Shown: piece by piece, positions 1 to 16,181 of the stretch
How positions within the stretch are numbered: the first letter of the stretch is position 1
Layout: every line of letters begins with the position of its first letter
The notes under the pieces: generated by a model
What the model saw: the letters and a program-made list of their open reading frames with translations, nothing else
Told to the model about the DNA's origin: nothing
Database searches by the model: none
Translations under genes and position numbers: made by a program
NCBI GenBank assembly: GCA_028872645.1
Contig: JAPKDK010000001.1
Coordinates: 1-40,805, forward strand
Source of the DNA: Verrucomicrobiota bacterium
Lineage (GTDB): Bacteria; Verrucomicrobiota; Verrucomicrobiia; Limisphaerales; UBA1100
DNA: 40,805 nt
Direction of reading: 5' to 3'

Positions 1-1338
1 TTTTGCTCCGGCCACTGGGGAGATTACTTCAGCCCGCCGCTGGAGCACAATGGCCGCCTTGTGAAGGGCGAGGGGTTTTGCGTCGATGATTTCACAAACA
101 AGGCGATGGCGTTTATGGAAAAAGCAAATAAGGCCGACAAGCCGTTTTTCGCTTATCTGCCGTACAACACACCGCACAGCCCGATGCAAGTGCCGGACCG
201 CTGGTGGAATAAATTTAAGGACAAAAAAATCACGATGCACAATCGAGACTCCAAAAAAGAAGACCTACCGCACTTACGGTGCGCACTGGCAATGTGCGAA
301 AACATCGATTGGAACGTCGGGCGCATTCTCAAAAAACTTAATGAAATGAAAATTGCTAACGATACCATCGTGGTGTTCTTCCACGACAACGGGCCGAATG
401 GGTGGCGTTGGAATGGCGGCATGAAAGGCCGCAAAGGCTCCACCGACGAAGGCGGCGTGCGCTCGCCGTTGCTCGTGCGTTGGCCCGGGCGAATCCCGAA
501 AGGTACGGAAGTAAAACCCATCGCGTCGGTGATTGATTTGCTGCCCACGCTGGCCGATTGCGCTGGCATTCCCGTCATTAGCAAAAAGAAACTCGATGGC
601 CGCAGCCTTAAGCCCTTTCTGTTGGGGCAAAAAGGGCAGTGGAAGGAGCGAATTATTTTTTCACACTGGAAAGGACGCGTGAGCGCGCGCACACAAACGC
701 ATCGGCTCGATCACACAGGGAAACTTTTTGATATGACCGCTGACCCTGGCCAACGCAAAGATATCAGCAAAACCAATCCAGCCCTCGCCACCCGCTTGCG
801 CGAACAAGTGGCCCACTGGAAAAAAACCGTGGTAGTGGAACTGGGCAAAGACACGCGCGCCTTTGTGATTGGCCATCCGGATTTTGAATGGACCCAAATC
901 CCCGCTCGCGACGCCACCGCCCACGGCGGTCTCAAGCGTTCCAATCGGTTTCCCAATTGCTCGTATTTTACAAACTGGACAAAGCTCGATGATCAACTCA
1001 TATGGCCCGCAGAGGTAGGTGCCGATGGGCGGTTTGAAGTGACGCTGCACTACGCCGTGCCCAAGGGCAGCGAAGGCACCGTGCTGGAGCTAAGCCACAA
1101 TGGCAACAAACTTCGCCACACGATTGCGCAGCCGCACGAAGCCCCCGCGCGCGGGCAGGAACACGACCGCGTGCCGCGGGCCGAATCGTACGTGAAAGAT
1201 TTCAAGTCAGTGAACATGGGCGAAATCGTCCTGCAAAAAGGTAAAGGCGAACTGACCCTGCGCGCGCTGGAAATCCCCGGCAAAGAGGCGCTGGAGTTTC
1301 GGCTGTTGATGCTGCGGCGGGTTGGGGCATCACGGTAG
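1..1338 (+). CDS. Sulfatase (alkaline-phosphatase-fold arylsulfatase family), 5'-truncated by the window edge, with a ~130-aa non-catalytic C-terminal domain
   Basis: Frame 1 is open from nt 1 (FCSGHWGDYF...) into tracked ORF 61..1338. Sulfatase-type blocks are present: PFFAYLPYNTPHSP, VVFFHDNGP, GMKGRKGSTDEGGVRSPLLVRWPG, DLLPTLADCAGI. The N-terminal FGly motif lies outside the window. Confidence 0.9.
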   Translation, partial: FCSGHWGDYFSPPLEHNGRLVKGEGFCVDDFTNKAMAFMEKANKADKPFFAYLPYNTPHSPMQVPDRWWNKFKDKKITMHNRDSKKEDLPHLRCALAMCENIDWNVGRILKKLNEMKIANDTIVVFFHDNGPNGWRWNGGMKGRKGSTDEGGVRSPLLVRWPGRIPKGTEVKPIASVIDLLPTLADCAGIPVISKKKLDGRSLKPFLLGQKGQWKERIIFSHWKGRVSARTQTHRLDHTGKLFDMTADPGQRKDISKTNPALATRLREQVAHWKKTVVVELGKDTRAFVIGHPDFEWTQIPARDATAHGGLKRSNRFPNCSYFTNWTKLDDQLIWPAEVGADGRFEVTLHYAVPKGSEGTVLELSHNGNKLRHTIAQPHEAPARGQEHDRVPRAESYVKDFKSVNMGEIVLQKGKGELTLRALEIPGKEALEFRLLMLRRVGASR

Positions 1339-8528: not shown

Positions 8529-10796
8529 ATGAAACGCACATTGCTAATACTTACCGCGCTTATTTCCCTGCCTGCCTTTGCGGGCAAATGGGATGAGATG
8601 AATTATGGGCAGTACCTTTCGACCTCACTGGAGGTGCCGGGCGCGGGCATTGTCAATAAGGGCATCGCCATCCGCCTCGATGCGGGCGAAGGCGGTGTTT
8701 CCAAAGGCAGCGCGTTCATGTTGTACGACACCGATTTAATGAACTGCGCCGCGGGCTGGACCGGCGGCTTCATCGACTGGCGCGGCATCGCCTTCGACGG
8801 ACGGCACAACGCCCACGCGTCCATCACTGGCGCGCAAGCGTTTGCCAATCCCGTCGGCCCCGGCTGGCGTAGTGTCACGGGCAAGTGGGCCGATGACGCG
8901 CGTGTGAAGGGGTTGGATGAAAAATCTTACGGCCCCCTGCCACGTGCTTGGGCGCATTACAAGGGATTGTACGTGAACGGAAATCGCGTGGTGCTTTCGT
9001 ATACCATCGGCACGCGCGGTGTGTTTGAATCACCATCGCTGCACGGCAAAAATGTTTTCATCCGCAACCTGCACATTGCGCCCGGACAGAGCGAAATTCA
9101 AATGCAAGTGGCGCGTGGCGAAGGCCGTGCGGCTCACTTGGAAGGCGACAAAGATTTGGTGTCAATGCAAACGGGAAAGGACGATGTGATTTGCGCTGCA
9201 GTGTTGGGTGGTTCGGGTTTGTGGGATTTGGCTGATGGCGCGAATCTGCGGCTCCGCATTCCGGCGGCGAACAAAGGGCTCAAATTGCAGGTGCTAATTT
9301 GGCGTGGCCCGCCTGGAGAATTGGATGTGTTGAAAAAGGCAGTCGCCGCCGTGAAAAAAGCTGGCAACCCACCCAATCTCTTGGCGCTGACGATAGGAGG
9401 CAAGGGGAAGTGGAAGCAAACGGTGCAAACCGATATCCGATCCGGTTTGGCGACGGGGCCGTATGCGACGGATACGTTTCAGTTGCCAGAAAAGAATCCG
9501 TGGAAGTCGTGGATGCGCCTCGGTGGCTTTGATTTTTTCAAGGACAACCGGCGCGCGGCGGTTTGCACGTGGCAGGGGGATGTTTGGATTGTCAGTGGGC
9601 TCGACCAACCGAAGGGCAAGCTGACTTGGCGGCGGGTGGCGGCGGGGATGTTTCAGCCGTTGGGGCTCAAAATTGTCGATGAGACGATTTACGTTTGTTG
9701 CCGTGACCAAATCACGCGGCTGCACGACACGAACGACGACGGCGAGATGGATTTTTACGAAAGCTTCAACAACGACCATCAAGTGACCGAGCACTTCCAC
9801 GAGTTCGCGATGGATTTGCAGACGGACGCGGCGGGCAATTTTTATTTTGCCAAGGCCGCACGGCACGCGAAGAGCGGGCTGGTGCCGCATCACGGATCGA
9901 TCATCAAGGTGAGCAAGGACGGAGCGAAGAGCTGGCGCATCGCCAATGGCTTCCGTGCGCCCAATGGCGTGACGGTGAACGGCGACGGCACATTTTTTGC
10001 CAGCGATCAGGAAGGCCACTGGACGCCGAAGAACCGCATTAATCTCATCCGCAAGGATGGTTTTTACGGCTACATGGGCTCGTACGTGCCGGGTCGTGAC
10101 CCGTCGAAGTATGACCCGCCGGTGGTGTGGATTGCCAAGAACGTCGACCGCTCGCCCGCGCAACAGCTTTGGGTGACCAGCGACAAGTGGGGCCCACTGA
10201 AAGGCTCGCTGATTAATTTAAGCTACGGCACCGGTCGACTGTTCACCGTGCCGTACGAGATGGTTGATGGCATCCCGCAGGGCGGGGTGGCACAACTGCC
10301 CATTGCCGAGACTCCCACCGGCGTGATGCGCGGGCGGTTTCATCCGGTTGACGGTCAGCTCTACGCCTGCGGACTCTTTGGCTGGGCGGGGAACAAGTCG
10401 CGCCCCGGCGGATTTTATCGTTTTCGCTACACCGGTAAGCCGCTGCATGTGCCGGTGAAATATTCGGTCAGCAAAAAAGGCGTGTCGCTAACTTTCAGCG
10501 AATCGCTTGACCAGGAAACCGCCAGCAACTCCGACAGCTTCGCTGCCGAGATGTGCAATTACCGCCGCACCGCCGGCTACGGCTCACGCGATTATCTCGT
10601 CAGCGATCCCAAAAAGCAGGGCCGCGACAAACTGGAAATCACCCGCGCCAAGCTTAGTGCCGATGGCCGCACCGTGCTGCTCCAAATTCCCAAGCTGCAG
10701 AAGTGCATGACCCTGCGCATTCAATACAACCTCAAGGGCGCGAAGGGCGAAACCGTGAAATCAGAAATTAACTGCACGGTGAATGTGTTGAAGTAG
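8529..10796 (+). CDS. Secreted dehydrogenase-like beta-propeller protein (PVC 'membrane-bound dehydrogenase domain' / glucose-sorbosone-dehydrogenase-like) with an unknown N-terminal domain and a C-terminal Ig-like domain
   Basis: Signal peptide MKRTLLILTALISLPAFA at ATG 8529; the tracked start 8499 is TTG. Propeller blocks ITRLHDTNDDGEMDFYESFNNDHQVTEHFHEFAMDL and FRAPNGVTVNGDGTFFASDQEGHWTP are paralogous to the 11733..13697 protein. No CxxCH motif. Confidence 0.75.
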   Translation: MKRTLLILTALISLPAFAGKWDEMNYGQYLSTSLEVPGAGIVNKGIAIRLDAGEGGVSKGSAFMLYDTDLMNCAAGWTGGFIDWRGIAFDGRHNAHASITGAQAFANPVGPGWRSVTGKWADDARVKGLDEKSYGPLPRAWAHYKGLYVNGNRVVLSYTIGTRGVFESPSLHGKNVFIRNLHIAPGQSEIQMQVARGEGRAAHLEGDKDLVSMQTGKDDVICAAVLGGSGLWDLADGANLRLRIPAANKGLKLQVLIWRGPPGELDVLKKAVAAVKKAGNPPNLLALTIGGKGKWKQTVQTDIRSGLATGPYATDTFQLPEKNPWKSWMRLGGFDFFKDNRRAAVCTWQGDVWIVSGLDQPKGKLTWRRVAAGMFQPLGLKIVDETIYVCCRDQITRLHDTNDDGEMDFYESFNNDHQVTEHFHEFAMDLQTDAAGNFYFAKAARHAKSGLVPHHGSIIKVSKDGAKSWRIANGFRAPNGVTVNGDGTFFASDQEGHWTPKNRINLIRKDGFYGYMGSYVPGRDPSKYDPPVVWIAKNVDRSPAQQLWVTSDKWGPLKGSLINLSYGTGRLFTVPYEMVDGIPQGGVAQLPIAETPTGVMRGRFHPVDGQLYACGLFGWAGNKSRPGGFYRFRYTGKPLHVPVKYSVSKKGVSLTFSESLDQETASNSDSFAAEMCNYRRTAGYGSRDYLVSDPKKQGRDKLEITRAKLSADGRTVLLQIPKLQKCMTLRIQYNLKGAKGETVKSEINCTVNVLK

Positions 10797-10799
10797 CGG

Positions 10800-11726
10800 T
10801 TACTGCTCCGGCGTTTCAATAAGTTGCCCGATATGTTTTTCGCCGCGTTGGCGGGCGAGGGTTTGTTGGCGTTGGCGTTCTTCGCGGCGGGCTCGTAGTT
10901 CGGGGGTGAGGGCGTCGATGCAGCGGGGGCAGCAGATTCCCGGTTCGTATGCGGGTGAAGCTAAATCCTCCGGCGTGAGCGGCCAACGGCAACCGAAACA
11001 GATTTCACAGGTACCGCGCTCCAAGCCGTGCACAACGGTCACGCGGTGATCGAATACAAAACACTCACCTTCCCACAAACTTTCTTCGGGCTTGGTTTCC
11101 TGTAAATATTTCAGGATGCCGCCTTGGAGGTGATAGACTTCCTCAAATCCTTCCTTGAGCAAATGCGCGGAGGCTTTTTCGCAACGGATGCCGCCGGTGC
11201 AAAACATCGCCACCTTTTGTTTTTTGGATTCGCTGAGATTTTTTTGCACAAACGCATCCCATTCGCCGAAGGCGGCGGTGTTGGGGTTGACGGCGTTTTT
11301 GAATGTGCCCAGCTCCACTTCGTAATCATTGCGCGTATCTATCAGCAGCACATCGGAGTCGCTGATGAGTTCGTTCCAGTCTTCGGGCGCAACGTATTTT
11401 CCGGCGGCCTTGTTGGGGTTTGCGGATGGATCGCCGAGCGTGACAATCTCCGGGCGAATGATGAGGCGCAGCCGGTGGAAGGTTTCGCGTTCAGTTTTAC
11501 ATTCGCGGTGCGGCATGTCGGCAAAGCGCGCATCGCTGCGGATGAACGCCAGCACCGCCCAGACACCGGCCTTTGATCCGGCGATGGTGGCGTTGAGGCC
11601 TTCAGTGGCGAGGATGATTGTACCGAGTACAGAGTGCGTTTTGCATTCGGCTTCCAGCCGCGTGCGGAACTCTTCGCAATCGGGCAGATCAACAAAGCGA
11701 TAAAAGGTAGTGACGGTCTGCGTCAT
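10800..11726 (-). CDS. trhO: Rhodanese-domain tRNA uridine(34) hydroxylase (UPF0176/YceA family)
   Basis: N-terminus TFYRFVDLPDCEEFRTRLEAECKTHSVLGTIILATEGLNATIAGS. Rhodanese active-site loop FCTGGIRCEKAS followed by VYHLQGGILKYL. Cys-rich C-terminal CEICFGC...CCPRC. Confidence 0.9.
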   Translation of the reverse strand: MTQTVTTFYRFVDLPDCEEFRTRLEAECKTHSVLGTIILATEGLNATIAGSKAGVWAVLAFIRSDARFADMPHRECKTERETFHRLRLIIRPEIVTLGDPSANPNKAAGKYVAPEDWNELISDSDVLLIDTRNDYEVELGTFKNAVNPNTAAFGEWDAFVQKNLSESKKQKVAMFCTGGIRCEKASAHLLKEGFEEVYHLQGGILKYLQETKPEESLWEGECFVFDHRVTVVHGLERGTCEICFGCRWPLTPEDLASPAYEPGICCPRCIDALTPELRARREERQRQQTLARQRGEKHIGQLIETPEQ

Positions 11727-11732
11727 GCCTCG

Positions 11733-13697
11733 TTAGTTTCGCTCAAGTGTAAGGTTATCGATGTTCGGGCCGCTGGACCCAGTGGACTCGAGGCGGATAT
11801 CGTTTACTCCAGCCTTAAGCGAGGCGGTTGTGGTGAGGGTTTTCCAATTTGTCCAACTGCCGGTGCTTGCGAAAGGAAGAGTCTTGATGATGACTTTTCC
11901 ATTCACCTTGAGTTGTAATGGGCGACTGCCGTCAATCAAAGCATAGCGAAAAATTAGTGTGTGCCCCCCAGCAGATTTGGTTTGGATCAGCCAGTTGAGG
12001 TGTTCGCCGGAGGACGCTTGGAAATCAATATATCCTTTGCCCGTATAGCCACCATTGTTTTTGGCCACTCTGGCCCCGTTTCTCCCAGCTGTTTCGGCCT
12101 CAAAAATTTGTTTTGACTGTGTCAGTGCGTTGGGTTGCGCGACAATAATCTTACTAACCGGTTTAGCTTTAGGAATGCCGACCGTTAAATGAGGGGCCTT
12201 GTTGTCACCATTAGTGAGGCGATTGAGAGTGTAGCAGATAAAGGTGTTAAGCACGGGGTTTTTGTCCATCGCAGTGATGTTTTTCAAATTCAGCTGGTAG
12301 ACATAACCGGGATTAAGTTTCTCTAGATTAATGGAGACAGATTTGCCATCGGATGCGAGCTTGAGGTTCGTCACTTTGATGGGTTCCTTGCCAAGTTGAG
12401 GTGAGCCATAGCTTTGGTGGTACTTATAATAGTAACGCTGGAAAACAAAATTTTCCACGGCGGCCCGTGCCAGTGGTTTGGTAAAGCTGAGTTTAAAGCC
12501 GGTTTGGGTTAGTTTCATGGCTGAAACACTCATTGGGGTTTTTCCGGTCCAAGTGATGCGCTGTAATCCGCTGCCACCCGCCCATGAGAGGTGGGTTTGC
12601 CCAACCCAAAGACTTCCATCCGGGGCGAAAACAAATCTGTGCATACCCCGGTGTAATCCCCCGTTATCAATAAAAGGTAGACAGGCACCCTGAGTTTCGC
12701 CGGCTACTTCGTCGACGAGCACGCGCATAATGCGGGGTTTATTCATCTCGCCCACGAGCAATTGGCCGGCAAAGGGGCCGAATTTTCCTCCGGAGGTATC
12801 GGTGAGCATCTGGGTGGGGCTATTGGCCATGCTGCCTTGCGGGAAAAGCACCGATGCGCGGGTGCGCTTGGCATCAAACTCGGACGGGGACACTTTGAGA
12901 GGGTTGCGGCCTTTTTCCCATGAATCAGTCCAGGCCAGGCTTGCGGGATGCCCATGGAAGTTATTTTCCTTCACATGGAAAAGCTTGCTGGTGCCCAGCC
13001 AATCTCCCTGATTGTCAGTGGCCCACAGTCGTCCTTGCGCATCAAAATTAACTCCGTTGGGGGAGCGAAAGCCGGAAGCGAAAGGGATGGTCTTGCCATC
13101 GGGCGCAATTTTCATGATCCAGCCGCGATAAGGTGTGGCTGAATACATTCGGCCAGAGCCCGCCCTATGGTTCTTGTAAAACTGTTCACGCGTAATGCCG
13201 TAGTGGCGAAATTCACCACGGATTTCCGGGCGAATACTTGCACCACTGGAAGCGAGGTTGAGCCCCACGTAGTAGTTGCCATCCTTGTCACGTGCGGGGC
13301 CGAAGGCGAACTCATGGTAATTGCCGGTCATGCCAAATTGGTCACTGATGGTCTGATAATGGTCAGCCTCGCCATCGCCGTCGGTGTCACGCAGGCGTGT
13401 TAGTTCAGGGCGCTGCATAACGACCAGCGTGTGGTTATCCTCGGCGATAATCCCCAGCGGCTCGTGCAGGCCGTCGGCAAAGAGTTTCCATATTTTTGTC
13501 TTTGGGTTGTAAGTATAGACCTCGCCCCGGTGGAAGCAGGCGGCTAACCGACCATCAGGCAGAAAAGTCAGGCCTCCGATTTGCACGTCCAGTCCCTTGG
13601 GGGCGGGGATGTTCTCGACCTTGTAATAGTCATTGATGCCGGCACCATGAACGGAAAGGTTTGCGAGTAGGGTGAGGATGAAAATTGCGCGCTTCAT
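11733..13697 (-). CDS. Secreted dehydrogenase-like beta-propeller protein with a C-terminal CBM6/CBM35-like carbohydrate-binding module
   Basis: Signal peptide MKRAIFILTLLANLSVHG. Propeller blocks LTRLRDTDGDGEADHYQTISDQFGMTGNYHEFAFGP and FRSPNGVNFDAQGRLWATDNQGDW. C-terminal FEAETAGRNGARVAKNNGGYTGKGYIDFQ...GSWTNWKTLTTTASLKAGVNDIRLESTGSSGPNIDNLTLE is CBM6/35-like. The ATG overlaps the upstream stop (ATGA 13694..13697). Confidence 0.8.
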   Translation of the reverse strand: MKRAIFILTLLANLSVHGAGINDYYKVENIPAPKGLDVQIGGLTFLPDGRLAACFHRGEVYTYNPKTKIWKLFADGLHEPLGIIAEDNHTLVVMQRPELTRLRDTDGDGEADHYQTISDQFGMTGNYHEFAFGPARDKDGNYYVGLNLASSGASIRPEIRGEFRHYGITREQFYKNHRAGSGRMYSATPYRGWIMKIAPDGKTIPFASGFRSPNGVNFDAQGRLWATDNQGDWLGTSKLFHVKENNFHGHPASLAWTDSWEKGRNPLKVSPSEFDAKRTRASVLFPQGSMANSPTQMLTDTSGGKFGPFAGQLLVGEMNKPRIMRVLVDEVAGETQGACLPFIDNGGLHRGMHRFVFAPDGSLWVGQTHLSWAGGSGLQRITWTGKTPMSVSAMKLTQTGFKLSFTKPLARAAVENFVFQRYYYKYHQSYGSPQLGKEPIKVTNLKLASDGKSVSINLEKLNPGYVYQLNLKNITAMDKNPVLNTFICYTLNRLTNGDNKAPHLTVGIPKAKPVSKIIVAQPNALTQSKQIFEAETAGRNGARVAKNNGGYTGKGYIDFQASSGEHLNWLIQTKSAGGHTLIFRYALIDGSRPLQLKVNGKVIIKTLPFASTGSWTNWKTLTTTASLKAGVNDIRLESTGSSGPNIDNLTLERN

Positions 13698-14716
13698 TTT
13701 CCGTGGGCGTGGTGATGGGTGATGGTAAAGCTTTTGGCTTCTTCACTGGTCAAAGTGGCAACTCCTTGGTTGATTTTCCCCTTTGAGACTTTTGTGTTTT
13801 TCGAGGCGATCGTGATGCGTAGGGGGTAGTTGATATCTGGGATTCGAAAATGACGGGTCAACCCCATGCCCGAGGGCAGGGCGGTGATGCGTTCGTAAAT
13901 ATCAATGTCACCAATGGTGTAGTGGAATTCGGGATGGCCATCGATTTTGCGGTAGCCTTGAAACTGAGGTTTAAAATCAGATGGGGCTTTTTTGTGGAAT
14001 GGGAAATCCTTCGAGCCAGTCCAAAATCTAGTGCCGATTATTTTGGCCAGCCCGTTGCCATTAGCCTTCCAGACGGGCATCGGGTCTACAAAGCCTCCGA
14101 TCCACGCATAACGCAGGTGACAGGTGCCTGCATCCCAACAGTAGGAGACACCGTGGGGAAGGGCTACCGCAATTGCAGCCGGGGAGGCATCAGGCATGAA
14201 GATGCGATACAGGAGCGGTCGGCGATGAGGCCAGGCGTGCAGGTTTTTATTGGCGCTCTGAGCACGGGCCATCGGTGAAACGTTTTGGTCCTGGGCAAGC
14301 TTGGGCATTTTGATGCCCACATACATTGCCCCGTACATGATCAGGCCGTGGCCGGGGAAAGTGCATACGTAGGGGTAGATCCCTTTTGCCTTGGGTGCTT
14401 CGAATTTTAACTCGGCACTTTCATCAGGCTTGAGTACGGGCGTATGCCACAGTACGGCATTGTTCTTGGGGATGTAGTTGGAATCGGGAGGCAAAGTGAT
14501 GGCATCCTGCACGATTTCAAGCCGTTTGCCCGGGGCAATGATGGCGAGATTGTGCGCCATCTCATCAGAATTCTTGAAGGTGAGCACCACCTCCTGCCCG
14601 GGTTGAGCTTCAAAACGCGGTTTGTCGTACTGTAACCCCGGCAAGGTGCCGATGGTGATTTTTAGAGGCGCGGCAGAAAGTGTAATTGCCGCGAATAATA
14701 AAATAAAAAATCGCAT
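13694..14716 (-). CDS. Azurin-like type-1 copper (cupredoxin) domain fused to a ~200-aa unknown domain, with a His-rich C-terminus
   Basis: Signal peptide MRFFILLFAAITLSAAP. Copper-ligand pattern DEMAHNLAI ... YPYVCTFPGHGLIMYGAM has the same C-T-F-P-G-H-x3-M spacing as azurin. The C-terminal domain carries AWIGGFVDP and HYTIGD blocks that resemble the N-terminal domain of the 8529 protein. Tail is THHHAHGK. Confidence 0.85.
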   Translation of the reverse strand: MRFFILLFAAITLSAAPLKITIGTLPGLQYDKPRFEAQPGQEVVLTFKNSDEMAHNLAIIAPGKRLEIVQDAITLPPDSNYIPKNNAVLWHTPVLKPDESAELKFEAPKAKGIYPYVCTFPGHGLIMYGAMYVGIKMPKLAQDQNVSPMARAQSANKNLHAWPHRRPLLYRIFMPDASPAAIAVALPHGVSYCWDAGTCHLRYAWIGGFVDPMPVWKANGNGLAKIIGTRFWTGSKDFPFHKKAPSDFKPQFQGYRKIDGHPEFHYTIGDIDIYERITALPSGMGLTRHFRIPDINYPLRITIASKNTKVSKGKINQGVATLTSEEAKSFTITHHHAHGK

Positions 14717-14729
14717 GTGATCTTAAAAT

Positions 14730-15722
14730 CTACTTTTCCTGTATCCACACGTTACGGTAGCGCACGGGGTTGCTGTGGTTTTGGAACCAGATAGGTCCGG
14801 GCGTGGCCCCTTCCTTTTGGCCGGCACCCGTCTTGTTTTTGAGTGCATAATCATCGTGGATCAGGATGCCGTTAAGCTTGGCGGTGATGCGGGCCGGGGC
14901 GGTGCGTTTGCCATCCGCATCAAACTTGGCAGTGGTGAAATCCACATCATAGGTTTGCCAGGTGAGCGGTGGGAAACAGGCGTTTACATCCGGATACTTC
15001 TGCTTGTAGAGGCAGCCACAATCATTCTTGGCGGGCGTCATCTCGATGCCGAAGGAATCGAGCACCTGCAACTCATAACGGCGTTGGAGGTAGAGCCCAC
15101 TATTGCCACGGGCCTGGCCGCGGGCAGTGGGCTTGAAGGGGAGTCGGAATTCCACATGCAGTTTGAAGCTTTGGAAATTATCCTTGGTAATGGCACCTTC
15201 CTTCATCAGCCCATCCTTGGTGACCTGTAATTTATCCAGCGAGCCATTGTCTTTGCCCGCAAAGAGCACCTTGGCTCCCTTGGGCGTTTTGGCACCGATG
15301 GTATCCGATTTGCGGATCATCCTGGCAAAGGTGCCGACCTGCTGGTCCCCCTTGGTAGCAATCACCTTGCCATCATTGTAATGCAGCGCAATGGGTGACT
15401 CATCATTGGTAAAGGTGGCCTTGGTCTTGCCTTTGCGTTTTCCCGTGTAGACCCACTTGGTTTGGCCGTCCCAACCTGCGCCGGGTAGACCTCCTTGAAA
15501 AGCTGTGGCCTGAAAAGTGCCTTCTCCCAGTGCCACTATCTGTATTCCGAGCTGGTGGTTGGTTTCCGATCCATCGATTCCTTCACCAGCGTATTCGCCT
15601 TGGATGAGAAAGTCCGGATCTTTCGCCGCCGCCTCGGGCGTTTCATAAGTGAGCTGGCCCTTGGGAGCGGCCACGAGGTTGAAAGCAAAAATGAGTGTGA
15701 GAAATGGGATGAGTTTCTTCAT
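14730..15722 (-). CDS. DUF1080 (3-keto-disaccharide hydrolase family) secreted protein
   Basis: Signal peptide MKKLIPFLTLIFAFNLVAAP at ATG 15722. The tracked ORF extends to 15941, but that extension lacks any signal or domain features. Family blocks FKLHVEFRLP, GNSGLYLQRRYELQVLDSFG, GCLYKQKYPD, GPIWFQNHSNPVRYRNVWIQE. Confidence 0.85.
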   Translation of the reverse strand: MKKLIPFLTLIFAFNLVAAPKGQLTYETPEAAAKDPDFLIQGEYAGEGIDGSETNHQLGIQIVALGEGTFQATAFQGGLPGAGWDGQTKWVYTGKRKGKTKATFTNDESPIALHYNDGKVIATKGDQQVGTFARMIRKSDTIGAKTPKGAKVLFAGKDNGSLDKLQVTKDGLMKEGAITKDNFQSFKLHVEFRLPFKPTARGQARGNSGLYLQRRYELQVLDSFGIEMTPAKNDCGCLYKQKYPDVNACFPPLTWQTYDVDFTTAKFDADGKRTAPARITAKLNGILIHDDYALKNKTGAGQKEGATPGPIWFQNHSNPVRYRNVWIQEK

Positions 15723-15868
15723 GGCTTTGGTGTGGGGGATTGTATCGGAGCGGGCCCAAAAGGCAACAGTAGGGAATGGCCACGGAGGAAAAGGGATGAG
15801 GCTAATTTTACGGGTAAGGCTGGAGAAGAGGTCGGCTTTAGGCTCCACTTTAAGATTCACTATAAGTT

Positions 15869-16181
15869 TATGTTTACTTTCCCGACCGCTCAGGCTGGTG
15901 GCTTCGAGTATGTTGAGAATCCCAATGACAACACGGTACATAGATTTTTAAAAGGTGCTGGATGGCTACCAAGCGAGGCGGGCGAAGTGATCTATCAATA
16001 TGTCTATTCGGTGCCCAACTTTTTCCCATATATATGCAAACATCAGACCGGAGAATTGGGCGCGAGTGAGGTTATGTTTCCCTACGTGCTTGAACCTGAT
16101 TGGATGACAAGTGTCTGGGAAGTTAAGCGTGTTCAAAGGCCCGGGAATATTGAAATCAATCAGGTCGCGTTTCCAACTTGA
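15869..16181 (+). CDS. Hypothetical 104-aa protein or gene fragment in the low-GC islet
   Basis: The first ATG after the divergent DUF1080 start, in the frame of tracked ORF 15495..16181. No recognisable motif, mixed third-position composition, and convergent with the methyltransferase gene. Confidence 0.25.

Follow-up and report, generated by a model that had tools for sequence, protein, structure and literature searches.

Introduction

Pairs of a dehydrogenase with a cupredoxin are well known, as is the 3-keto-glycoside pathway, and the locus described here builds a new variant from them. It lies in a stretch of 40,805 nucleotides from a marine Verrucomicrobiota bacterium of the Limisphaerales (hereafter the window; positions 1 to 40,805 of the forward strand of contig JAPKDK010000001.1, assembly GCA_028872645.1) and consists of three genes, all predicted to encode exported proteins: a DUF1080 protein (gene 1), a cupredoxin joined to a putative DUF6797 domain (gene 2), and a DUF7133 propeller that carries a carbohydrate-binding module (CBM) of family 35 (gene 3). 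An earlier note, made from the letters of this DNA, had read the three genes as a candidate system that oxidises a glycan in the periplasm and then cleaves it.

In the published 3-keto-glycoside pathway, a dehydrogenase (LacABC, ThuAB or BT2158) acts with the DUF1080 protein BT2157, a 3-keto-alpha-glucoside 1,2-lyase and glycal hydratase, and BT2156, of the AP_endonuc_2 family, is the corresponding beta-lyase; both BT2156 and BT2157 act after a periplasmic 3-dehydrogenase (PMC9007349, PMC8121099, bioRxiv 10.1101/2024.03.25.586180). Thus the oxidise-then-cleave combination, which the earlier note took to be undescribed, is already in the literature, and the family name of 3-keto-disaccharide hydrolase on which that note relied does not agree with these studies, which point to a 1,2-lyase and hydratase. 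BT2157 and its AL/BT2 homologues are the only DUF1080 proteins with demonstrated activity on 3-keto-glycosides, and the family also includes an endo-xanthanase/lichenase. Our locus shares with the pathway a (predicted) periplasmic oxidase and a DUF1080 protein, relatives of the cupredoxin-propeller pair being accompanied by DUF1080 in some cases and by an exported AP_endonuc_2 protein in others, and the cytochrome c subunit of LacABC is an electron carrier within its system, as the cupredoxin would be here. The systems differ in the oxidiser, which is an FAD/GMC or Gfo/Idh/MocA enzyme there and a propeller here (the operon of gene 1 holds no LacABC, ThuAB or Gfo-type glycoside 3-dehydrogenase, and the propeller occupies that place), and in the carrier, which here is copper. 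The CBM35 suggests that the substrate at our locus is a polymer and not a disaccharide, and 3-keto regiochemistry is putative here.

The second set of relatives consists of the pairs formed by methylamine dehydrogenase (MADH) and amicyanin, by aromatic amine dehydrogenase (AADH) and azurin (2H3X), and by alcohol dehydrogenase (ADH) IIB and azurin, in which a periplasmic dehydrogenase likewise passes its electrons on to a type-1 copper protein of its own, the gene of which adjoins. These pairs differ from ours in that the enzyme depends on tryptophan tryptophylquinone (TTQ) or is an eight-bladed pyrroloquinoline quinone (PQQ) protein, the carriers are single-domain proteins that lack DUF6797, and the substrates are amines or alcohols.

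A third comparison is with the soluble glucose dehydrogenases (sGDH; 1C9U and 1CQ1 from A. calcoaceticus, 3DAS from S. coelicolor, 2ISM from T. thermophilus; PF07995). These share the six-bladed propeller and the periplasmic location, and the gene 3 propeller keeps putative counterparts of their residues R228, Q246, G247/P248, T348 and R408, but they lack its additional beta-sandwich, its CBM35 and a dedicated cupredoxin partner; cytochrome b562 is reported to serve sGDH as acceptor in vitro. The fungal AA12 PQQ pyranose dehydrogenase CcPDH (6JT5/6JWF) has the same type of fold and, like our locus, combines a CBM with an electron-transfer module; AA12 enzymes oxidise C1. The bacterial 'PQQ-6beta' enzymes adjoin periplasmic carriers inside clusters of carbohydrate-active enzymes (CAZymes). 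A 2026 preprint describes such six-bladed PQQ enzymes as paired with cytochromes c4 or c551 in CAZyme clusters and mentions neither cupredoxin nor azurin (bioRxiv 10.64898/2026.07.10.737718). The carriers of the AA12 and 'PQQ-6beta' enzymes hold haem b or haem c, and the carrier here holds copper, by prediction. Finally, the CxxCH proteins typical of the Planctomycetota-Verrucomicrobiota-Chlamydiota (PVC) group (TIGR02604/DUF7133 with HEAT repeats and cytochrome c) belong to the same propeller superfamily and likewise join a propeller to a one-electron carrier. At our locus there is neither HEAT nor CxxCH, and the carrier is a copper protein, separately encoded and joined to DUF6797. Our literature search found no paper mentioning DUF7133, DUF6797, PF23500 or PF20601.

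Results and discussion

The three exported proteins probably act together to oxidise glycans in the periplasm. The reading that we prefer, with a probability of about 0.5, is that the locus encodes a copper-wired periplasmic carbohydrate dehydrogenase and that the DUF1080 protein acts on its keto product. What is firmest about the locus is the pairing of genes 2 and 3. Relatives of gene 2 were collected by a pattern scan over one genome per species (185,579 species genomes), which gave 520 stretches; the synteny counts come from the 79 distinct loci that were examined, 76 of which had enough downstream DNA. The propeller gene directly follows the cupredoxin-DUF6797 gene in all 76, and the two genes overlap or lie close together in most related loci. 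The arrangement goes well beyond what chance would give; the adjacency recurs in every evaluable locus. The pair occurs in Verrucomicrobiota, Bacteroidota and Planctomycetota, its hosts being marine Verrucomicrobiae, Limisphaerales, Chthoniobacterales, Sphingobacteriales, Chitinophagales, Cytophagales, Flavobacteriales and Planctomycetota metagenome-assembled genomes (MAGs). Because only the pair is kept throughout, the core is a two-gene unit, to which DUF1080 and CBM35 are lineage-specific additions.

The genome from which the window comes shows what such pairing may be for. Its DUF7133 family is expanded (28 matches, with six matches to DUF6797), and several of the paralogues are joined to, or directly follow, a carrier (Table 1): cytochrome c takes the place of the cupredoxin in the closest ones, and in two others a cupredoxin stands at the C-terminus, where canonical TIGR02604 proteins carry cytochrome c. 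Copper and haem one-electron carriers are thus interchangeable modules. This swapping among paralogues, together with the strict synteny across three phyla, strongly supports the reading of the cupredoxin as the separately encoded electron partner of the propeller, standing in for the haem domain of the PVC relatives, and so bears out the earlier proposal of a separate blue-copper acceptor. The position of DUF6797, always between carrier and propeller, suggests that it may serve as a docking adaptor. The genome also encodes a haem-copper oxidase, a possible acceptor of the electrons.

Two further loci show related arrangements. In Pedobacter sp. AK017 (L084, 4185-6763), a DUF7133-HEAT gene is directly followed by a gene for a high-potential iron-sulfur protein (HiPIP), a third kind of electron carrier beside DUF7133. 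Next to them lie four Amidohydro_2 genes and one that is heparinase II/III-like. In a Chthoniobacter sp. MAG (L062, 5902-9492), cupredoxin, DUF6797, LamG and propeller lie in one frame of 1196 codons. We rejected this frame as a true cupredoxin-propeller fusion, as the propeller keeps its own signal peptide; the frame reflects either the loss of a stop codon or a fault in the assembly.

Carrier swapping also bears on whether the propeller is a redox protein at all. It could instead be a glycosidase, a lyase or a binding protein beside which the cupredoxin has an unrelated role. The only TIGR02604-type protein to have been studied biochemically, Lac161_ORF7, was reported to be a beta-galactosidase with a Km of 1.8 mM for lactose (PMC5342196); moreover, the luciferin-regenerating-enzyme (SGL) fold gives a TM score similar to those of the dehydrogenases, and NHL-type repeats match the propeller by sequence. 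A non-redox propeller would, however, leave unexplained why its paralogues are fused to, or stand beside, cytochrome c, multi-haem cytochromes, HiPIP and cupredoxin. The Lac161_ORF7 assay, moreover, was a glucose-oxidase/peroxidase colour reaction, which a haem-bearing sugar oxidoreductase could disturb. We regard a non-redox propeller as very unlikely.

The N-terminal half of gene 2 is predicted to be a type-1 copper cupredoxin with a complete ligand set. It matches PF00127 at E 4e-9 (37.3 bits, cut-off 21.2), as do all 28 of its homologues, and it resembles auracyanin A (2AAN) both in sequence (E 1e-13) and in its Greek-key fold (Foldseek TM 0.89, rmsd 1.4 A); the model also matches the azurin of the AADH complex 2H3X (Foldseek TM 0.82). 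The copper ligands H55, C118, H123 and M127, in the pattern His...Cys-x4-His-x3-Met, are invariant across the 28 homologues and align with those of auracyanin A, in agreement with the azurin ligand spacing seen earlier. The domain is azurin/auracyanin-like and not azurin proper, the equivalog model of which (TIGR02695) it does not reach (37 bits against 105.1).

The second half of gene 2, which the earlier note had left unnamed, is a domain of about 180 aa with invariant Cys193 and Cys199 and the motif CWDAGxCxLRYAW. Profile matches identify it as a putative diverged DUF6797. Gene 2 itself falls below the cut-off of PF20601 (E 0.003, 18.8 bits against 24.9), and BLASTP of its C-terminal domain against the DUF6797 of the neighbouring paralogue is not significant (E 0.43), so the assignment rests on the family-wide Pfam matches: E<=1e-3 is reached by 15 of the 28 family members, and the lowest value is 4.5e-7. 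The His-rich tail THHHAHGK (window 13694-13720) is present as described earlier, but it is kept only in close relatives, the marine clade, with the variants THRHSHGK and IHRHILGK; it may be a metal-handling tag.

Gene 3 encodes a propeller, an Ig-like beta-sandwich and, after a linker, a C-terminal module. The propeller scores 38.3 bits against PF23500 (DUF7133; cut-off 27), a match that covers only profile positions 77-207 of 385, and the AlphaFold2 (AF2) model reaches a mean pLDDT of 86 and is poor over one insert, aa 151-186. HEAT repeats and CxxCH are both absent from gene 3 in a Pfam scan and a motif search of the open reading frame (ORF), and the translations of the DUF1080 and cupredoxin proteins, read by eye, hold no CxxCH; the earlier observation that a haem CxxCH domain is lacking thus extends to all three proteins. 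The C-terminal module had been called CBM6/35-like, and it is indeed a CBM, matched in Pfam by both CBM_6 (46.6 bits) and CBM_35 (PF16990, 35.9 bits, cut-off 28). Its matches to the CBM35 of Xyn30D and CsxA at E 1e-21 and its fold (Foldseek TM 0.90-0.93 to 2W1W, 4QB1 and 2VZP) place it in family 35 and not in CBM6. The CBM35 structures nearest to it in Foldseek are uronate binders (2W47, 4QB2, 2VZR).

The propeller is a remote homologue of the PQQ-dependent soluble glucose dehydrogenases. A search of PDB sequences with the gene 3 protein and with a profile of 34 sequences returned only CBM35 and NHL/'Pizza' repeats and no sGDH, and hhalign of the gene 3 profile against one single glucose/sorbosone dehydrogenase (GSDH) sequence gave a probability of 6%. 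Against a profile of 17 GSDH sequences (16 Verrucomicrobial GSDH genes and 1C9U, the letters of which are 100% identical by PDB search), hhalign gave 98-99%, and the best Foldseek matches of the propeller are PQQ aldose/glucose dehydrogenases (2ISM, 3DAS, 1CQ1, 7CGZ) and the AA12 enzyme 6JT5, with E of 5e-12 to 1e-10 for 2ISM, 3DAS and 1CQ1 and of 1e-9 (TMt 0.56) for 6JT5. It is on these two results that the homology rests; identity to sGDH-type enzymes is 12-18%.

Whether the propeller binds the cofactor of its relatives can be judged in part. The PQQ/Ca site of sGDH, which we take to consist of R228, Q246, G247/P248 (Ca ligands), T348, K377, R406 and R408, appears to be only partly conserved. 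In the well-aligned C-terminal half of the hhalign alignment, R211 corresponds to R228, N229 to Q246, Q230/G231 to G247/P248, T295 to T348 and R354 to R408, and these residues are kept, but the counterparts of K377 and R406 are ambiguous. Across nine paralogues, R211, N229, G231 and R354 are among the best-conserved positions; R211, G231, S293 and Q336 are kept in every own-genome paralogue aligned at those positions, and H128, D228, W233 and R354 are each lacking in one paralogue only. H128, at the start of blade 3's inner strand (Asn in one paralogue), would be topologically at the right place for the catalytic His144, in a region where hhalign, both global and local, sets the N-terminal blades one blade out of register.

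Gene 1 opens with the signal peptide MKKLIPFLTLIFAFNLVAA, followed by an N-terminal domain of about 125 aa and the DUF1080 jelly-roll. It is a DUF1080 protein, as had been read from the sequence, with a match to PF06439 well over the cut-off (E 7e-31, 108 bits against 26.8) and one to PDB 4QHZ (E 1e-26). The related loci show where else it stands beside the pair. Clade A, to which our locus belongs, is represented by 12 of the examined loci with DUF1080 (64-97% cupredoxin identity), in which the DUF1080 gene lies directly upstream and the propeller carries a CBM35. In addition, DUF1080 is directly upstream of the pair, independently, in Chthoniobacterales (L070), and in Sphingobacteriales it heads the same-strand gene string, a putative operon, that holds the pair, with a GFO/Oxidoreduct_C gene added. 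At least three lineages have thus acquired DUF1080 beside the pair independently of one another. The three-gene combination of the earlier note recurs in these places; most loci are without DUF1080.

In the other clades the neighbours of the pair are all carbohydrate (sugar or sugar-acid) enzymes, many with twin-arginine translocation (Tat) signals. In clade B (L019-L040), an exported AP_endonuc_2 (xylose-isomerase-like) TIM barrel sits directly downstream of the pair, with an SDR gene, and a LarA_N-like gene and an exported SGL lactonase lie upstream. Clade C, from Bacteroidota, has genes for an exported enolase-superfamily protein, a DHDPS-like protein, an epimerase and Gfo/Oxidoreduct_C, and an exported Amidohydro_2 or UxuA-like gene. 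Tat signals are carried by the SGL of clade B and by the Amidohydro_2 of Bacteroidota. The gene of Lac161_ORF7 also adjoins an enolase-superfamily gene (PMC5342196), which resembles the context of clade C. Separately, we noted in the Bacteroidota loci L042-L081 that enolase-superfamily, UxuA-like and Amidohydro_2 genes lie directly upstream of the cupredoxin and have apparent twin-arginine signals. These signals imply a periplasmic sugar-acid chemistry, which, as predicted from the signals, would be unusual, since the families are mostly cytoplasmic.

Two routes can be read from these neighbours. In our preferred reading the propeller makes a keto-sugar, and the recurrence beside the pair of two unrelated families of keto-glycoside lyases, DUF1080 and AP_endonuc_2, supports oxidation followed by cleavage. 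An alternative is that the same redox module oxidises C1 of free sugars or reducing ends to a lactone, as do sGDH, YliI and AA12, in which case DUF1080 would be an accessory, lectin-like or hydrolytic, with no action on a keto product. The C1-oxidising enzymes of the sGDH family are homologues of the propeller, DUF1080 is missing from most loci, and two unrelated exported families of lactonase type (SGL in clade B, Amidohydro_2 in Bacteroidota) recur beside the pair together with sugar-acid enzymes (enolase-superfamily, UxuA-like, DHDPS-like), dehydratases among them, which supports the C1 route to an equal degree. Against it stand the repeated and independent recruitment of DUF1080 and the equivalent place of AP_endonuc_2 in clade B, both being keto-glycoside lyase families; moreover, the operon in our window holds no lactonase, and a CBM35 would bring no obvious benefit to a reducing-end oxidase. 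We consider C1 oxidation possible, though on balance unlikely. What tips the balance towards the keto route in this operon is no more than that DUF1080 is the one accessory enzyme it holds. The C-oxidation followed by cleavage of the earlier note is therefore plausible, in view of the joining of DUF1080 at least three times and of the AP_endonuc_2 of clade B, although DUF1080 is not part of the core and lactonase-like neighbours occur.

For the preferred reading, the keto route, the following course can be envisaged. The propeller, held by its CBM35 on a glycan that probably bears uronates, would oxidise a sugar hydroxyl or hemiacetal. The type-1 copper of the cupredoxin protein, the gene of which lies directly upstream, would receive two electrons; the DUF6797 domain of that protein may dock the carrier on the propeller, and aerobic respiration would re-oxidise the reduced cupredoxin. 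The DUF1080 protein, in this lineage probably made from the same transcript, would then act on the keto-sugar by 1,2-elimination and hydration, like BT2157, so that glycosidic bonds would be cleaved oxidatively. A broader version of this reading, which we put forward as doubtful, is that the pairs are widespread respiratory glycoside dehydrogenases that oxidise ring hydroxyls (C3/C2) of polymeric uronate-bearing glycans for non-hydrolytic cleavage (elimination, then hydration) by DUF1080 or exported TIM-barrel lyases; DUF6797 would then be a universal docking domain for copper and haem carriers, and the cofactor would perhaps not be PQQ.

Several results weigh against the preferred reading. 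The cupredoxin-paired propeller subfamily is known from sequences and models alone. Gene 3 reaches neither the cut-off of TIGR02604 (58.1 bits, E 1e-15, against 122.2) nor that of the GSDH model PF07995 (20.4 bits against 25, over aa 206-335 only); of the earlier description as a glucose/sorbosone-dehydrogenase-like propeller, the fold and the profile homology have held. The counterpart of His144 is not placeable, given the slip in hhalign and the poorly modelled stretch 151-186. Neither pqqC nor a true pqqE was found in the own genome, which is 92.8% complete, and pqqC was missing from four of the five isolates with the pair; the same search detected it in Chthoniobacter flavus, the positive control. 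DUF1080 is absent from 60 of the 79 loci and has about 31 matches in the own genome (3.08 Mb), where DUF1080 and DUF7133 share three contigs against about two expected (hand count); as this amounts to no genome-wide association, it is conserved adjacency that links DUF1080 to the pair. To our knowledge, all characterised six-bladed PQQ sugar dehydrogenases oxidise C1 and not C3.

As pqqC is lacking in five of the six carrier genomes searched (the own genome and four of the five isolates), the propeller would use PQQ that has been scavenged, or another cofactor. Scavenging of PQQ is common among Gram-negative bacteria, according to the preprint on the bacterial six-bladed enzymes (bioRxiv 10.64898/2026.07.10.737718). 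We also observed that the pqqC match of C. flavus (G061, C58:132932-133621) has one in-frame TGA, and that the own genome has two classical GSDH genes (C141, C210).

Electron flow from propeller to cupredoxin is the direction that we infer. If flow were reversed, the cupredoxin would reduce the propeller or its metal or cofactor, making it an O2- or peroxide-dependent glycan-modifying enzyme. The doubtful conservation of the sGDH catalytic base and the lack of PQQ synthesis in most hosts would fit such an enzyme, and the His-rich tail of the close clade could handle metal. No oxygenase-type metal motif was seen, however, and the most conserved residues of the propeller match the cofactor pocket of sGDH; moreover, the cupredoxin-quinoprotein pairs that we know of (MADH-amicyanin, AADH-azurin) all run from dehydrogenase to copper. 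Reverse flow thus seems quite unlikely.

Locus layout and flanking genes

The three genes are co-oriented on the minus strand (Table 1), and reading of the sequence confirmed the trio, the 13-nt gap and the ATGA overlap described earlier. The DUF1080 stop codon TAG occupies 14732..14730, and the cupredoxin ATG begins at 14716. The overlap of the cupredoxin and propeller genes predicts their translational coupling. Sec-type signal peptides, recognised by inspection, open all three products, which are therefore predicted to be exported. A longer ORF for gene 1, starting at 15941, was rejected, since the M at 15722 opens the signal peptide and homologues begin there. Directly upstream of gene 1 lies a weak sigma-70-like hexamer pair, a candidate only, that matches at 9/12 positions; promoter and terminator scans of the region gave nothing exceeding chance, and the number of sigma-70-like sites is not above the shuffle expectation.

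A trhO-like gene lies 6 nt downstream of the propeller gene, co-oriented with it and 3 nt from the stop codon of a convergent propeller paralogue, and its position is kept in 10 close-relative loci. It belongs to a housekeeping family and probably shares the operon transcript. The convergent paralogue, in which DUF6797 is fused N-terminally to the propeller, has neither a carrier domain nor a CBM and is 29% identical to gene 3 over 485 aa (E 8e-42); a convergent propeller paralogue lies at this position also in L005, L007, L012, L013 and L016.

Table 1. Positions of the locus, its domains and its flanking features in the window, and of carrier-bearing propeller paralogues elsewhere in the same genome (positions with the prefix C).
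Feature	Position (nt)	Residues (aa)	Strand	Basis
Gene 1, DUF1080 protein, predicted exported, 330 aa	14730..15722		-	PF06439, PDB 4QHZ
DUF1080 jelly-roll of gene 1	14739-15224	167-328	-	PF06439
13-nt spacer, DUF1080 stop to cupredoxin start	14717..14729		-	sequence read
Gene 2, cupredoxin and putative diverged DUF6797, predicted exported, 340 aa	13694..14716		-	PF00127, auracyanin A 2AAN
Azurin/auracyanin-type cupredoxin of gene 2, linker following	14318-14674	15-133	-	PF00127
Putative diverged DUF6797 of gene 2		~165-335	-	PF20601 family-wide matches
ATGA stop/start overlap, cupredoxin and propeller genes	13694..13697		-	sequence read
Gene 3, propeller, Ig-like sandwich and CBM35, predicted exported, 654 aa	11733..13697		-	PF23500, Foldseek, hhalign
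Six-bladed DUF7133 propeller of gene 3	12549-13625	25-383	-	PF23500
Ig-like beta-sandwich of gene 3, linker following	12198-12548	384-500	-	AF2 model
CBM35 of gene 3	11742-12113	529-652	-	PF16990, PDB and Foldseek matches
Candidate sigma-70-like hexamer pair	15739..15766		-	9/12 positions
trhO-like gene (UPF0176/rhodanese)	10800..11726		-	PF17773 and PF00581
Convergent paralogue, DUF6797, propeller and beta-sandwich	8529..10796		+	PF20601 E 2e-30
Cytochrome c-DUF6797 protein with five CxxCH, then propeller	C415:14021-17880			
Cytochrome c-PA14-DUF6797 protein, then propeller	C164:190-3378			
Single open frame, CxxCH motif, DUF6797-like stretch and propeller	C69:20486-23299			no part called by Pfam
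GDSL/SGNH, DUF7133 propeller, (HEAT) and C-terminal azurin-like cupredoxin	C116:3-2915 and C414:1306-4530			

Implications

Few families have expanded as much in the genomes of PVC bacteria and Bacteroidota as the DUF7133 propellers and the DUF1080 proteins, and their functions are almost unexplored. For DUF6797, the locus leads to an initial hypothesis of function, as an adaptor that would dock the carrier, and its three soluble, predicted exported proteins make up a small test system in which bleaching of the blue copper could be followed optically. If the locus does encode a respiratory glycan dehydrogenase that feeds a lyase-type cleavage, part of the turnover of marine and soil polysaccharides would be tied directly to the electron-transport chain. 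Cleavage would then proceed without classical glycoside hydrolases, and carbon-cycle inventories based on CAZymes would miss it.

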